A DNA stretch of 37,491 bases from positions 25,160 through 62,650 of the forward strand of contig PS015066.1 in the NCBI GenBank assembly GCA_048213135.1, written 5' to 3'. The stretch comes from Reclinomonas americana ATCC 50394 (taxonomy: Eukaryota). The position numbers and the translations under genes are program-made. Position 1 is the first letter of the stretch; each line of letters opens with the position of its first letter. Below the pieces are notes generated by a model that did not search any database, was not told the origin of the DNA, and saw only the letters and a program-made list of their open reading frames with translations. Of this stretch, positions 1,238-32,981 are shown in pieces.

Positions 1238-4200
1238 ATGGCGGCGACGGGTGACACGGGCAAGGTCGACCTTGGTGGACGATTGCTGGACGCCAATGGG
1301 TTTTCGATATTCGAGACCAAGGCGCGTTGTGCATGACTGGTTAAGTTTTGCTGGCGTTCTTTGTTGCTCATGTGTAGGTGTGCAGTGTGCGATCAGTGGA
1401 TGGGTGATTCAGGATGGAGCGATGGGCGAGGGCACTGCGCGGTATCGGTGTTTGGATGTGGTGCGCTCGGATCGCTCGGTGGAGTGTCACGAAGCGGTGT
1501 CGGTGGTGCTGGAGGCGCTGCAGCGAATGGAGGAGTCGGGTGCGCTGCCGGCCGGCGCCGCCATGTCGTTGCTGTTGCAAGAAGTGGAGGGTGTCGGAGA
1601 GGAGAGCGGCGGGCATCCACTGGCCACGCTGTCGGCCACGCGCCATGCTGTGTTTGCGCTGGAGACCAACCACCCGGTGTTTCTGTACAATGGCGTCATT
1701 GGTGCGTCCGTCCGCACTGTGAGAGAAGGTGTAACGTGCCTGCCTGACGCTGCGGTCTTTGCAGATGCGAAATCCCCGGCCGAGGCACTGAATCGTGCAT
1801 TCGCCGCCTATCCGAACCGCCCGGCTGTCGGCATGCCCGCTCATCGAATCGATGAAACCAACATGCCATTCGGGCGGCAGTGCGACATGGCAGTGGAGGC
1901 GTGAGTAGCCGTGTGCCGATATGTGTAACTCTCTCTCTCTCTCTCTCGCTCTCGCTCGCTCGCTCGCTCTTCCCCATCGTCTCCCCCATCGTCTCTCCCC
2001 TCCCCCTTCTCCTTCCCCCTTCCCCCTTAACCCTTCTTCTCCGCCTTCCCCCCTTCCTTCTCACCCCCTTTGCTCACCGCAGATACCGCTTCATGTCCTA
2101 CCGCCGCATCGGCGAGCTGACGCGCATCTTGGCCAGCGCACTGGATCGCCTGCTGCCGCCGGGCGTCTTTGTCGGTCTCGCCGGCGACAACCGCCTCGAA
2201 TGGATCGTCACCGACTTTGCGTGCTCCGTTGCCTCACGCCATGCCATTGGCCTGCACAAGGTACATGCTTCTTGCCTCTCTCTCCTCCTCACGACACTTT
2301 TTCGCTCATCCACAACATGGCAGACATTTTCGGCCAACGATTTGGACTTTGTTGTGCACAATGCCGAGTTGCATGCGATTGTCAGCGACCTCGAGTTCCT
2401 TCGTGTCGTTGCCACGGCCGCTCCACGCATCGCCGACACGGTGCGTGTCGTGATTCTCATGGACGACGCGGCGCCGGCGGCATTGCTGGCGCCCTTGGCA
2501 CACCAGTTGAGCGAGGCCGGCATTCGATTGGTGCTGCTAAGCGAGCTGGTGGCCGGCGTGGTGGAAGCCGCGTTGCCGGTGCTCGACGAGGAGCCGCGTT
2601 CCATCTTTGCCGTGCTGTACACGAGTGGTTCGACAGGTCAGCCAAAGGGCGTCACCGTGACCTCGGAGGTTTCGTACTCGTCAAGAAAAAATGGCACACA
2701 AGTGTGCGTCGGTGCTGAGCAGCGCGTCGCGCAGATGTTCCTGAAGGACATTTCCAGCTCCGGCTTCATGGACGTGTATCCGGTGGCCGGCTGCTCGTAC
2801 ATTCCATTGTCGCACTCCACCGACCGCATGCGCGTGTGGGAAACAATGATTCAGGGCGGGCGCATCGGCTTCTGCAACTACCATTACACCAACTGGGTTG
2901 ACCACGAGACCGTGAAGAAGGACCAGCTTGTGCATGTGAGTGAGGCGGGGAAGGGAGCATGAGTGACGAGATGTCAGAGAGAGATCTCACGCTCGTTGGT
3001 ACGCCAGGATCACGACACGGGCACCAACAACGTGGAGACACTGCTGGAGGATCTGCGGCTGGTGCGGCCCACCATTTTCATTGGTCCACCGCGCATCTGG
3101 AATGGGATTTATGAGGTGCGACTCTGTGTATGCACTTATCTGCAGGACGACTTGTGCTCACGATCCTGTGCACAGATCTGGGGACGTAGCGTAAGGAGGC
3201 ATGTCGCCAATGGCGCAGCAGTCGAGGAGGCAGAGCATCTGGCCAGCGAGGAATGTCGGCAGATTCTCGGCAATCGCGTGGTGCACTGTGCCACTGGTGA
3301 GTTCACCTCTGTTTCCATCCGTTGGTGTGCGTGAAGTCTCACTTGTGTGGTAGGCGGTGCGCCGACGAGCGAGAAAGTCAAGGTGTGGGTGCGCAAGCTG
3401 CTGCCAGACGTGGCATTCATCGACTCGTATGGCGCCACCGAGTGCGGTGGCATTGCACGCGACGGCGTCGTCATGCCGAGTGTGGAGATGAAGCTCGTGG
3501 ATCATCCCGACATTGTGAGTCGCTGTACACGACTGGATGTGTGAGAGGCAGCTCGTCTCATCTACCTGTGCTCTCAGGGGTTCACCAACGCCGACAAGCC
3601 GTTCCCTCGCGGTGAAATCGCCGTTCGCTCTTTCTTTGTGTCACCTGGTTATCTCAAGTTGCATAATGTCTGCCCGCGTTGTGTGGCCACTTCGTGCTCA
3701 CCACTCGTGCACTGCAGAGATCCAGTGAAGACGGCAGAGGCGTTTCACGATGGGTGGTTCCACACAGGTCAACCTTTTATACAGTGTCTCCTCTGGTGAT
3801 CGATCCTTCTCACGTTCTCCGCAGGCGATCTGGGCATGGTGGACGGCGATGGAAAGCTGCACATTCTCGAGCGCGCCAATGTTTCGTGTGCTGTCAACGA
3901 TGACCACCTGTTAGCTTCTCGCAGTTCTGGTCTTCTTCTCGATTCCTGATGCACCTCTTTACATTCTGTTGTGCGATTCTCTATTAATATTCTGGTCTTC
4001 ATCTCGCTTCTTGGGTCACCTCTCTTTTTCTGGATCCTTTGCATTCTTCCCTGTCAGTTTGTCCTCCCAGCTGCACGCTATTCTCGATTCTGGTCTGCTT
4101 CTCGCTTCCAAACTCACTTTCTGAGCCTGATCTTTCTTCCCTGTCAGTTTGTCCTCCATTTCTTTCTGCAGCTGCAGGCTATTCTAGATTGCTGCTCGCT

Positions 4201-5058
4201 TCCTCGCTCACTCTGTTGACCCTGCTTCTCTTCCCCTGCCAAATTGTCCTCCCTTGCCTCCTGCAGCCGCAAGCCATTCTCGCTCACTGATACACTCCAA
4301 TGCTTTCCTTCTGCCACAACCTTTGGCCCGTGACCCTTGATTCTTTCGATTCTCGTCTTCTTCCGACTTCCTGCTGCAACCCTCTCTTTCTCTTGATCCC
4401 GTTCCCTCTTCCCCTGTCCTCTTGTTCCCCCCTACTGTGCTAACTCCGCCAAACGCGCGCAGGCCGTTCAAAGTCTCTCCACCGGCCAAGTGTACTGTCC
4501 GACGCATCTGGAGAGCCTCTTTGAAGAGAGCACCCTGGTGCGTGGCACACACCTTGCGTAATTATTGCGTGATGCACTGACTCTCTCTGCAGGTTCACGG
4601 CGTCTACGTGCATGGCGAGCCGCAACGAGACCACCTCGTTGCCGTGGTGGTGCCGTCGGAATCCGCTCGCGACTCGGTCACGCCTGCAGCGGTATGCTTG
4701 TCTCGCCCTTTCCCTCCTTCCCTGCCATTGCTCACCGCACCCAGGTCCTCGACGATTTCAACCGCCTGGCTGCGCTGCGTGGTGCGTCGCATTCCCACTC
4801 CCACCTCTTTTCCCCGTCGCCTTCTCACACCTGTCTCGCAGGCCTGGAGCCACACCAAGTGCCACAGGCGGTGCACCTCACGCTGGACGAGTGGCGCGCC
4901 GACGGCGACGCGCTGCTCAATCTGCATTTCAAGAAAATGTTGCGTGCACGCACCTCCCTCACGTTCCATCACGGTGCCCTCACACCCAAGAACACAGTCG
5001 CCGCAACTTTGCTCGCCACTACCGCGATCAGCTGCAGGCACTGTACGAGAGCAGCTGA
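1238..5058 (+). CDS. AMP-binding adenylation enzyme (long-chain acyl-CoA synthetase / carboxylic acid reductase A-domain-like), ~16 exons
   Basis: Spliced motifs YTSGSTGQPKG, PLSH, EDLRLVRPT, TGGAP, SYGATECG, DKPFPRGEI, GWFHTGDLG; C-terminus KKIRRNFARHYRDQLQALYESS*. The start at 1238 is inferred. Confidence 0.9.
3881..4462 (+). repeat. Unusually long intron containing degenerate pyrimidine-rich internal repeats
   Basis: TTCTTCCCTGTCAGTTTGTCCTCC at ~4044 and ~4134, with a related copy at ~4230; flanking exons ERAN|AVQSL join in frame. Confidence 0.6.
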
Positions 5059-30953: not shown

Positions 30954-32981
30954 CTACTGGTTCGTCTTGAACTTGTCGAGCGCGCGGATGAGGGCACTGT
31001 GCAGCGATGATGAGCGATTCGATTGGTTGTGTGCAAGGTAAATGTGGTGGGGTGAACGTACGATGCCGTGCCGGGCTCCTTGGAGTTGTGGCCAGCTGTG
31101 GGGGAAGAGACAGTGAATCGCGGTGCATGAAGAAAGCGATGCATGGCATGGCACAAACCGTCCGGGATGATGATCAGCTCCGACTCGGGCCACGTCTGTG
31201 CATGGACAGCAGTGGGTTTCTCTGTTTTTGTCTTTCCGAGCCACCAGTCATACCTTGTGCAGATCGTACGCGCTCTTGGCCGGGCACACCAGGTCGTAAC
31301 GGCCCTGCACAATGACGCCCGGAATGTTGCGCAGCTTCACCGCATCCTCAATCAGCTGGCTCTCGCGCTGCAAGAAGGACAAGAGAGTCAGCATCGAGCA
31401 CAGCACTCTCCAGCAAATGACAGCGACCAACCTCGAAGAAGCCACTGCAGGTGTGGATAACACAGATAGCGAGTCAGCAGCACGATGCAGGCGCACAGAA
31501 CGGTGAACAACGACGAACCCATTGACAAAGTAGTGGCATTCGATGCGGGCAAAGGCGAGCGCAAAGTGCGGATCCTCGTACTGTGGCAAACACGAGAGTG
31601 AGAAACAGCGCATGTGTAGTTCCATGAGCCAGCATTGCGCAACGTGCGAGAGGAAATCGGGGTCGGGGAACAGCTTGGAGGTTGCGCCTACACGCGACAG
31701 GCGAGTTAGAAAACACCCGACACTTAAGCTCGCACACAGTTTCTGCTCACCCTCCCACACGCTCCACACGGCGGCGGCATCGAGGCGTGTCTGTATGCGC
31801 ATTTAGTTCAGAACACACAGAGGCTTGTTCACCGTGCATGTCACTCACCTTTTCGTCTTCGGAAGTCAGACGGCGGTGATACCTGTCTCGATCGGTAAGA
31901 AATCACTCTTATCATGTACACACCAGCACGACAACGCCAACGCAACGCAGACATCATGTCGCCACGCTCCACCTCGGGAATGTGATTCCAGTACGGCTCC
32001 CAGGCGTCCTACGACACACCCCGTCAGTCGCGGCAAGCGACACACAGAGAGGGGGAAACAGAGAGCACCCACCGGGTAGATCCAGCTGGCACCATCCTGG
32101 TAGAACCACAACAGCTCACTGCGGCGCAGCGTGAAAATGCCACGCAGAACCAGCTCCGTCACACGATCGGGGTGCGCCTCGGCCTGAGGAAGGGCGATAA
32201 GTATGCAATCGAAGCATACACTCTCTCAAGCCACGCAACATAGGCGAGTGCGAGGGTGCTTCCCCAGCTGCCGCCAAACACCAGCCACTTCTCCAGGCCC
32301 AGATGCTCACGCAGCTTCTCCATGTCGGCCACGAGGTGCCACGTGGTGTTGTCGACCAGCGACGCATGCGGGGTCGACTTACCGGCACCTAGAAGCCACG
32401 GGATTCAGAAGACAGGAAAAAACACACACACACCAACAACAAGAGCAACGCACCACGCTGATCAAACAGCACGACATGGTACGCCTCGGGATCTGCACGA
32501 AAGCGGAGGTGAGTTGCACAGACGCAAGTACAGTGCGCGAATGTGTGTGCTCCCACCAAAGAAGCCTGCGGCGCATGGTCCATGATGAGGAAAACACACA
32601 CAAAAGCGATGAGAGGAGACAGAGACTGAACGCACGGCGATCAGCTGGCGACACTCCACCACCAGGGCCTCCATGCACAAACACCGCCGGCTTGCCCTGT
32701 ATCAGAAACAGACAACATGCTTAAACTCCAAAGGAGAAGACAAGTCACCAGTCATCCCTGCAGACAACGGAACTTTGGGGTTGCCGACTTGCTGCAACAA
32801 TCAAAGAACATCTCAGTCACCAGTCAAGCAAAGACAACGAGTGCAAGTCTCCTTGTCGCACCTCATAGTACAGCTCATGCACATCGCTGACACGCAGACG
32901 GCCAGTGGCAAAGGGCTCGATTTCCGGGTAAAACGTGGGCGCAGACGACCACATTGGCGAGGGTGCAGAAGCAGAGGCCAT
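30954..32981 (-). CDS. pip: Proline iminopeptidase (peptidase S33, alpha/beta hydrolase), ~15 exons
   Basis: [107 protein letters not shown]. Confidence 0.95.

Follow-up and report, generated by a model that had tools for sequence, protein, structure and literature searches.

An abundant class of extended 5′ splice sites tied to non-G exon ends in a 37-kb window of Reclinomonas americana DNA

This study concerns the 5′ splice sites (donors) of the introns in a 37,491-nucleotide (nt) stretch of DNA from Reclinomonas americana ATCC 50394 (contig PS015066.1, forward-strand positions 25,160 to 62,650), referred to below as the window; all positions count from its first letter. Besides canonical donors of the form GTNNGT, many of these introns begin with GTTNNGT, most often GTTGCGT. 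Such extended donors are genuine as well as numerous, and as a class they are linked to exons whose last base is not G. All junctions described here rest on the window sequence, on homologues, and on a purpose-written gene finder.

Gene content and gene models

The window has a G+C content of about 58% and includes six runs of N. Its genes lie on both strands and are crowded with very short introns. The recognisable genes are as follows.

About 1026-5058, plus strand: AMP-binding / acyl-CoA-synthetase-like gene
About 8000-8395, plus strand: DDRGK-domain gene
From 8506 upward, minus strand: IRE1-like kinase/RNase gene (Pkinase and Ribonuc_2-5A)
15880-18958, plus strand: ABCF ATPase gene
19324-23445 (refined model), minus strand: long coiled-coil gene
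Minus strand: D123 gene
30954-32981, minus strand: proline iminopeptidase gene
33857 to the end of the window, plus strand: CBF/Mak21 gene

Neither an Rfam match at the gathering score nor a tRNA was found within the window. For the ABCF gene (exon 17900-18295, plus strand), the best named matches are from Acrasis (65% identity), Naegleria (63%) and Trypanosoma (about 55%). A protein search found no near-identical ABCF protein, and no close relative was seen in protein or metagenome collections. The loci returned by a metagenome scan with the ABCF exon (80 in all, each at 46% identity or less) were too distant for a comparison of intron positions, and were not used. Judging by these ABCF relatives, which are Heterolobosea and kinetoplastids at 55-65% identity, the lineage seems to be poorly sampled. 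In intron content, neither Andalucia (few introns) nor Diplonema (1.6 introns per gene, with a median length slightly below 1 kb) resembles the window.

Gene models were built by dynamic programming, with scores for codon usage, an acceptor matrix, the presence of the branch-like motif CT[CGA]A[CT], and intron length. Codon usage was seeded from Pfam-matched stretches of open reading frame and then re-estimated. The earliest pass, which scored codon usage alone with a fixed penalty per intron, gave just 35 introns and was rejected as too insensitive. Two versions of the gene finder are referred to below: a donor-blind version, in which nothing is scored at the donor except GT, and a refined version, to which a two-class donor score was added. 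The refined version produced 104 introns in 11 selected models, comprising 44 with GTNNGT donors, 27 with GTTNNGT donors, 32 with other donors and one with GTGCGGT.

GTTGCGT as a donor signal

The donor-blind run gave 87 introns, among which GTTGCGT was the most frequent donor heptamer (12/87), with the runner-up seen only four times. Unsupervised two-class expectation-maximisation (EM) clustering of these 87 donors separated a class of 30% with the consensus H/GTTGCGT, where the slash marks the exon-intron junction and H is any base but G. Its three exon positions read A, then C or G, then not G, and the frequency of G at position -1, the last base of the exon, is 0.04. The other 70% have the consensus xWG/GTGMGT (M being C or A), with G at -1 at a frequency of 0.72. 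Direct counts in the donor-blind set agree, as G stands at -1 in 1/19 GTTNNGT donors versus 21/30 GTNNGT donors (p = 6e-6). Since both the class and its link to the last exon base are seen in the donor-blind set, they are independent of any donor model.

The heptamer is also strongly over-represented, with 28 copies in the window compared to 8.18 ± 2.81 in 100 dinucleotide-preserving shuffles (shuffle maximum 14). Enrichment of GTGCGT is far lower, at 57 copies observed versus 39.6 in the shuffles. An initial annotation of this DNA had listed 20 exact GTTGCGT donors, and all of them were found at the position and on the strand claimed: 19 are donors in selected models, and one (5290, minus strand) is a donor in a low-scoring model. 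The remaining eight copies comprise one in a sense exon, one in a sense intron, four antisense to genes, and two outside the models. Counting only sense-strand copies within the spans of selected genes, 19/21 GTTGCGT act as donors, as do 12/31 GTGCGT and 15/19 GTGAGT. GTTGCGT is thus a very specific donor signal.

Donor classes and the last base of the exon

Curation of the models against homologues led to a set of 111 introns, whose donors fall into four groups.

GTNNGT: 45/111 introns, G at -1 in 35/45
GTTNNGT: 29/111 introns, G at -1 in 3/29
Looser GTTG forms: 7/111 introns, G at -1 in 0/7
Other donors: 30/111 introns, G at -1 in 28/30

The 29 GTTNNGT donors agree well with the initial estimate of about 30 among 110-120 introns. 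They consist of 20 GTTGCGT, three GTTTCGT, three GTTTTGT, and one each of GTTGTGT, GTTGAGT and GTTCCGT. The seven looser forms are GTTGCGC, GTTGCGA, GTTGCAT, GTTGAGC, GTTGTAT and two copies of GTTGTGC. We use the term extended donors for both groups together (36 sites).

G is found at -1 in 3/36 extended donors versus 63/75 of all others (Fisher p = 7e-15), and the narrower comparison of GTTNNGT (3/29) with GTNNGT (35/45) gives p = 1e-8. That 19 of the 20 exact GTTGCGT sites follow a base other than G had been pointed out in the initial annotation; this is borne out, and the link holds across the class. Seen from the exon side, a non-G base precedes 45 donors, and 33 of these are extended (26 GTTNNGT and the seven looser forms). 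Over the whole window, about 40% of donors carry a T at +3. Where a T+3 donor has GT at +5/+6 (GTTTGT, GTTCGT, GTTGGT), it behaves like a canonical site, with G at -1 in 7/8.

Sites with the extended form are given below with the base at -1 and the evidence for each junction. The phrase "if retained" refers to the effect of leaving the intron in the message.

2669-2675, plus strand: GTTTCGT after G; acyl-CoA-synthetase-like gene; 66-nt in-frame, stop-free intron (2669-2734); 22-23-residue gap at this point in homologues P0260, P0386 and P0336
3658-3664, plus strand: looser form GTTGCAT after A; homologue spacing across GYLK/DPVK
3881-3887, plus strand: GTTTCGT after T; 582-nt intron; gene-finder donor; residue spacing to P0260 preserved over the junction
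4939-4945, plus strand: GTTGCGT after T; 59-nt intron; donor-blind and refined finder; homologue match stops at exon end; frameshift if retained
5284-5290, minus strand: GTTGCGT after C; 65-nt intron; only in low-scoring model 5122-5568 (minus strand); stop and frameshift if retained
9367-9373, minus strand: GTTGCGT after T; IRE1-like gene; gene-finder donor; upstream exon ends at KGKHPFGD of yeast IRE1
10028-10034, minus strand: GTTTTGT after G; gene finder only; in-frame stop if retained
11258-11264, minus strand: GTTGCGT after G (the sole exact site after G); refined finder; frameshift and stop if retained
11398-11404, minus strand: GTTGCGT after C; refined finder; stop if retained
11912-11918, minus strand: GTTTTGT after A; gene finder; frameshift if retained
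12134-12140, minus strand: GTTGCGT after C; donor-blind and refined finder; frameshift if retained
12635-12641, minus strand: GTTGCGT after C; donor-blind and refined finder; frameshift and stop if retained
12750-12756, minus strand: GTTGTGT after A; gene finder; frameshift if retained
12889-12895, minus strand: GTTGCGT after T; refined finder; frameshift and stop if retained
13668-13674, minus strand: GTTGCGT after A; marked as ambiguous in the initial annotation; refined finder; links a lysine-rich repeat exon to the next exon; gene boundary uncertain
16644-16650, plus strand: GTTTCGT after A; ABCF gene; intron covers a run of N and (TC)n; GKT plus A/CT CTG TTG gives GKTTLLHQL, compare GKSTLL of homologues
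17146-17152, plus strand: GTTGCGT after A; ABCF gene; gap-free at the junction against 12 homologues; a variable stretch, with insertions in few homologues, starts just downstream
17439-17445, plus strand: GTTGCGT after C; ABCF gene; LDEP/TNH, followed by an 8-nt microexon; gapless across this invariant motif
17621-17627, plus strand: GTTTTGT after C; ABCF gene; gapless alignment
17834-17840, plus strand: GTTGCGT after T; ABCF gene; gapless alignment
18673-18679, plus strand: GTTGCGT after C; ABCF gene; second LDEP/TNH; gapless across the invariant motif
20409-20415, minus strand: GTTGCGT after A; coiled-coil gene; donor-blind and refined finder; frameshift if retained
21285-21291, minus strand: GTTGAGT after A; coiled-coil gene; gene finder; frameshift if retained
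21563-21569, minus strand: GTTGCGT after T; coiled-coil gene; gene finder; 69-nt intron (21501-21569), open in frame if retained
21930-21936, minus strand: GTTGCGT after T; coiled-coil gene; gene finder; stop if retained
29317-29323, minus strand: GTTGCGT after T; refined finder; frameshift if retained
29667-29673, minus strand: GTTGCGT after A; refined finder; frameshift if retained
29982-29988, minus strand: looser form GTTGCGA after A; refined finder only
31637-31643, minus strand: looser form GTTGCGC after C; proline iminopeptidase gene; gapless against 12 homologues
31940-31946, minus strand: GTTGCGT after C; proline iminopeptidase gene; gapless, GDMMSA/YHRR
32233-32239, minus strand: GTTGCGT after T; proline iminopeptidase gene; LAY/AE; gapless across this conserved motif
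32767-32773, minus strand: GTTCCGT after A; follows an 18-nt microexon (QVGNPK); tblastn of homologue N-termini places the microexon and its flanking exons

Support from homologues

Alignments to homologues fix 12 GTTNNGT junctions in three conserved genes (ABCF, proline iminopeptidase and acyl-CoA-synthetase-like), plus two of the looser GTTG forms. The predicted ABCF protein aligns to 12 homologues free of gaps at all nine modelled junctions. For the proline iminopeptidase the alignment is gapless from RFFDPE to the C-terminus over 12 junctions, including those with donors at 32239, 31946 and 31643. In the acyl-CoA-synthetase-like gene the exon search was dominated by giant multi-domain proteins, and only three matches of ordinary length were used. 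All seven exact GTTGCGT junctions in these three genes are consistent with the homologues: six are gapless (17146, 17439, 17834, 18673, 31946 and 32239), and 4939 is supported by a match that ends at the exon end.

Two alternative placements of the junctions were considered and rejected. If the real donor were the downstream GT at +6/+7, each exon would gain 5 nt, and the alignments of ABCF and the iminopeptidase would be disrupted. A one-base displacement of both boundaries alters a conserved proline, as seen at 18673, where the conserved P becomes R.

Among the extended introns with a modelled acceptor, 25/26 would shift the frame or add a stop if retained. Two extended introns, 2669-2734 (plus strand) and 21501-21569 (minus strand), span a whole number of codons without an in-frame stop, such that retention would add 22-23 residues. 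The first of these is confirmed as an intron by the gap that homologues show there.

Several sites had been tied to protein motifs in the initial annotation, and most of these ties hold. The motif LDEP/TNH is confirmed twice (17439 and 18673), as are LAY/AE (32239) and, across a run of N, GKT/TLL (16644). HPFGD/V at 9373 holds by half, being pinned on the upstream side only: the downstream exon alone gave no match to solved IRE1 chains, and a homologue search with the exon of the IRE1 KEN domain also gave no match. Among the variant sites proposed as relatives of GTTGCGT, GTTTCGT (2669, 3881 and 16644), GTTTTGT (17621) and GTTCCGT (32773, minus strand) are supported as donors by homology, with 3881 resting on the gene finder and on residue spacing.

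At the sites that can be checked by homology, the gene finder was correct at every exact GTTGCGT, and its errors were confined to looser variants. It called 32631 (GTTCAGT) where 32635 (GTGCGT) is right, and 3678 (GTTGTGT) in place of 3658 (GTTGCAT), a small exon that it missed, and 3768 (GTCAAC). Donors 2669 (GTTTCGT) and 32773 (GTTCCGT) were missed, and 16644 (GTTTCGT) was left as an unfinished model end at a run of N.

Intron type

Beyond the donor, introns of the two classes are closely alike. Median length is 66 nt for extended and 64 nt for canonical introns. Among the short modelled introns, the branch-like motif CT[CGA]A[CT] occurs in 18/25 with GTTNNGT donors versus 34/43 with GTNNGT donors, and in both classes the median distance of its A to the 3′ splice site is 18 nt. 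The acceptor is CAG in 24/25 GTTNNGT introns (the other being TAG) compared to 37/43 GTNNGT introns, and all 29 GTTNNGT donors have GT at the 5′ end. On this sequence evidence, the extended-donor introns are most likely ordinary U2-type GT-AG introns. They do resemble U12-type introns, spliced by the minor spliceosome, in being a minority whose donor is long and strictly conserved, while the exon side lacks a consensus. However, an assignment to the U12 type was rejected, as the branch motif, its distance from the 3′ end and the acceptor here match those of the majority class. The extended donor itself presumably bears no resemblance to the U12-type consensus.

Register of the extended donor

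The initial annotation had described GTTGCGT as the local consensus GTGCGT with one base inserted, and the EM classes agree with this: slid by one base, the extended consensus equals canonical G/GTGCGT at 6/7 positions, with G+1 lying over G-1. The exon side was examined in the same way. When the exon-side context of the 36 extended donors is scored with the canonical profile, the log-likelihood is -146 shifted and -228 unshifted, compared to -153 for a coding background. Positions -2 and -3 alone give -96.4 shifted, -114.8 unshifted and -100.1 for background. In line with a shift, the occurrence of G at extended -1 (3/36) is close to that of G at canonical -2 (11%). The tail is also stricter in the extended class, with GCGT exact in 20/29 extended donors versus GTGCGT in 13/45 canonical donors (12 in the refined models, and 32635 from curation), and with A preceding the tail's GT in 2/27 extended versus 16/44 canonical donors (p = 0.01). 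A shifted reading would lead us to expect this, because a strict tail would offset a mismatch or bulge.

Pairing was then predicted between the donors and the 5′ terminus of the U1 small nuclear RNA (snRNA). With the standard U1 end, mean energies are -7.1 kcal/mol for GTNNGT donors, -5.1 kcal/mol for others and -1.7 kcal/mol for extended donors. Among 16 hypothetical U1 ends, in which the positions facing +3 and +4 were varied, ACGCAC is the best for all three classes (-9.2, -7.7 and -7.0 kcal/mol), with a mean of -7.0 kcal/mol for the extended class. A hypothetical end with an extra A (ACGCAAC) gives -9.9 kcal/mol for the extended class. The expectation from these models is that the lineage has its own form of the U1 end, or else that a second U1 exists.

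Other features of the window

Four microexons were noted, of 8, 9, 13 and 18 nt, at 17507-17514 (plus strand), 32557-32565 (minus strand), about 31419-31431 (minus strand) and 32774-32791 (minus strand), respectively. The first, in the ABCF gene, encodes TN(H); the others, in the iminopeptidase gene, supply RFF, a 13-nt piece and QVGNPK. Each is flanked by normal short introns, and is needed for gapless alignment to homologues. The iminopeptidase gene has 16 introns across approximately 320 codons. One of its exons, of 49 residues, shows 90-92% identity to many homologues, of which the few with a named source are bacterial; over the whole length of the protein, P0125 is much the closest homologue.

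Low-complexity sequence is found at several points. The intron at 3881-4462 (plus strand), at 582 nt, is pyrimidine-rich with internal repeats (…cttccctgtcagtttgtcctcc…), whereas other introns are 55-80 nt. Within the ABCF intron, 16675-16870 (plus strand) holds a run of N and, after it, a lengthy (TC)n microsatellite. Further tracts, of (TG)n, (CA)n and CTC-rich sequence, occur at 33030-33160 (minus strand), upstream of the iminopeptidase gene. Finally, 13675-14901 (minus strand) is a 409-codon open exon with approximately 30 lysine-rich repeats of the form KVDDKAKKQESAA. The models join it to the IRE1-like gene via the donor at 13674, although it may be a separate gene.

Discussion

The two donor classes invite the question of how one spliceosome would handle both. 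The reading that we prefer, and hold at about even confidence from sequence considerations, is that the extended donor (H/GUUGCGU, or more generally GUU-NN-GU) is read one base out of register, by shifted pairing or with a bulged U, on ordinary U2-type introns. The site would then be the local canonical G/GUGMGU with everything downstream of GU displaced by one base. The same U1 small nuclear ribonucleoprotein (snRNP) would bind one base out of register, with the intron G+1 taking the place of the exon's last G, opposite C9 of U1. U+2 would be mismatched, or one of the two U's would bulge, and UGCGU would pair as in a canonical site. After U1 departure, the ACAGA of U6 could pair in its usual way with the G and U now at +6/+7, given one bulged U, and cleavage would stay 5′ of the first GU. 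Such a class would let an intron follow a non-G exon end without losing the G:C9 contact. On the shifted reading this contact would be kept by the intron G+1, and the two classes would therefore divide by the base at -1. For U1 a shifted form is preferred over a pure bulge, because a bulge should favour G at -1, which is the opposite of what we see.

The initial annotation had proposed shifted-register recognition as a major donor class in this lineage, or else a variant U1/U6 snRNA or altered U1C/LUC7-type factors. Shifted recognition gains partial support from the abundance of the class, its link to non-G exon ends, the one-base superposition of the consensus sequences, and the exon-side fit. 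Its simplest version meets a difficulty: given the very weak predicted pairing (-1.7 kcal/mol), shifted pairing with an ordinary U1 would not suffice by itself.

Several points weigh against the out-of-register reading. It is from sequence that we infer the register of pairing, a role for U1 and U6, and any lineage-specific U1 5′ end. The standard U1 end pairs far less well with extended donors than with the other classes, and the +1 register is the best duplex in just 10/27 extended sites. In thermodynamic terms, a canonical site after a non-G base should pair at least equally well, and yet 33/45 donors in this position are extended. Pairing energy alone does not explain the non-G split, which calls for either a separate reader or a G:C9 contact that counts for more than its energy. 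The shifted exon-side fit is ahead of the coding background by no more than about 7 log units across the 36 sites, and could result in part from differing intron phases in the two classes. The sample is a single 37-kb window with 111 introns, and the home-made gene finder made two wrong calls and missed three GTTNNGT donors among those that can be checked by homology. Regarding unequal weight on the two sides of the junction, work on LUC7 proteins describes donor classes that rely on either the exon side or the intron side, and the split seen here resembles such a division in extreme form.

A live though less probable alternative is that a second U1-like snRNA (a paralogue or variant) with a 5′ end complementary to GUUGCGU (…ACGCAAC…) serves the extended class, with the main U1 serving G/GUGMGU and all other components shared. 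This would fit a class so sequence-specific that 19/21 sense GTTGCGT copies in gene spans are donors, and one that has no requirement for G on the exon side. It also fits the predicted energies (-9.9 kcal/mol for an end with one extra A, versus only -1.7 kcal/mol for the standard U1), as well as the bias against A before the GT of the tail, which is hard to explain with a standard U1 that would pair with this A. Physarum reportedly has both standard and modified U1 variants (bioRxiv 10.1101/2022.06.08.495308). However, the window contains no snRNA gene by Rfam search, and a second U1 is not required, since one U1 alone, if its positions 5 and 6 were GC, is predicted to pair workably with the three classes (-9.2, -7.7 and -7.0 kcal/mol). 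The graded series of looser variants (GTTTCGT, GTTTTGT, GTTGAGT, GTTGCGC) also suggests flexible pairing over a dedicated reader. The fuller proposal, in which two parallel donor-recognition systems act on otherwise identical U2-type introns and a dedicated second U1-like snRNA handles non-G exon ends, seems to us unlikely.

Less probable again is the idea that U1 pairing plays only a minor part, the motif being read by a protein or directly by U6/U5 in the tri-snRNP, with UGCGU as the binding site. The weak predicted pairing to standard U1 would be accounted for in this way, and duplex energies do leave the split by the -1 base unexplained. There is also human precedent, both for U1 binding at a distance from the cleavage site and for one intron that is independent of U1 (reported in Tan et al. 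2016, PMC4856993). Against this, no candidate factor is known, and pairing explains a donor that equals the canonical consensus plus one base with fewer assumptions. Moreover, reasoning from the scheme outlined in bioRxiv 10.1101/2022.06.08.495308, a single bulged U would give the ACAGA of U6 its canonical pairs.

That the class is an artefact of misplaced junctions, with a motif that is merely common in GT-rich introns, is very improbable. Errors of the gene finder at looser variants (32631 and 3678 wrong; 2669, 16644 and 32773 missed) lend this idea some substance, but the 28 copies compared to 8.2 expected, the agreement of GTTGCGT strand with gene strand, the emergence of the motif without any donor model, and the accord with homologues at 7/7 exact junctions in the genes checked all speak against it. 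From intron base composition, GCGT would be expected after GTT in approximately 0.5% of cases, compared to 20 donors that start with GTT; this excess over chance upholds the initial annotation. Least credible is an origin of the donors from introner-like elements, an intron family of recent spread with a GTTGCGT end, as might be imagined from the many near-identical donor heptamers and narrow length range, but which is contradicted within the window by the general branch motif and acceptor, by an all-against-all comparison of the 104 modelled introns (blastn-short, E < 0.01) with no match between two extended-class introns, and by the short length of the 14 matches listed among modelled introns (just 13-18 nt, several of them reciprocal or overlapping).

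Returning to the out-of-register reading, its interest would lie in scale. Human out-of-register 5′ splice sites, as described in the sources cited below, make up a small fraction and have been shown one site at a time. If the reading is true, a genome that employs one such form in a quarter to a third of its introns would offer a natural test system. With its tight consensus and its sharp dependence on which base ends the exon, the extended form opens the questions of whether the cleavage site is fixed separately from the U1 register, and what weight is carried by the exon's last G and its contact with C9 of U1. The prediction on the U1 5′ end is that it will be a single ACGCAC, a second U1 with ACGCAAC, or the standard ACUUAC, each of which would be informative. 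If there is indeed a second U1, it would represent a third kind of spliceosomal donor specification beside U1 and U11. In practical terms, approximately a quarter of introns in this genome would be wrongly placed or overlooked by gene finders that model the donor as one six-base motif.

To our knowledge, such a share of introns on one tightly defined out-of-register donor, split by the last base of the exon, is undescribed. Literature motif searches found no treatment of GTTGCGT or GUUGCGU as a donor class; these took in top-ranked titles only, with supplements and subscription journals outside their scope.

Comparison with known systems

In human cells, shifted and +2/+3-bulged U1 registers have been validated experimentally, and the validated noncanonical registers together account for 1.5% of 201,541 sites (Tan et al. 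2016, NAR, PMC4856993). The closest likeness is to the human shifted (+1) register of Roca and Krainer, as presented in PMC4856993: the consensus matches when slid by one base, G+1 replaces the exon's last G, and cleavage is at GU. The test oligonucleotide described there for the +1 register also has a non-G base at -1, as here. The difference is that this register is rare in humans, whereas the extended form, for which a register is inferred, occurs in 29/111 introns (36/111 with looser forms) and has its own tight consensus, GUUGCGU. The human +2/+3 bulge, with 68 predicted sites (Tan et al. 2016, Table 3, PMC4856993; register from Roca et al. 2012), is formally the same pattern as GUU-GCGU, with GU, an extra U, and a consensus tail. 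However, that bulge keeps C9 opposite the exon's last base, so that G at -1 should help, and here G is depleted (3/36).

Changes in U1 itself also have precedent. Entamoeba combines the donor GUUUGUU with U1 ACAAAC, and Mastigamoeba combines GUACGU with U1 ACGUAC, while in Thecamonas and Micromonas U1 is reported to be standard even though donors there have C at +4 or the form GYGCGY (bioRxiv 10.1101/2022.06.08.495308). From the latter two examples it follows that a changed U1 is not assured here. Like the donors in the window, the Entamoeba type tolerates U at +3 and carries information at position 7 of the intron, and a changed U1 end is a plausible partner here too. It differs in that introns are few and nearly all share a single site (88-90% GUUUGU), compared to two coexisting classes in an intron-dense genome. 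A single donor type in nearly all introns is not what we find, with extended donors in 29/111 or 36/111 introns beside 45 GTNNGT and 30 others. Unlike the Entamoeba site, the extended donor retains the canonical tail, displaced outward by one base.

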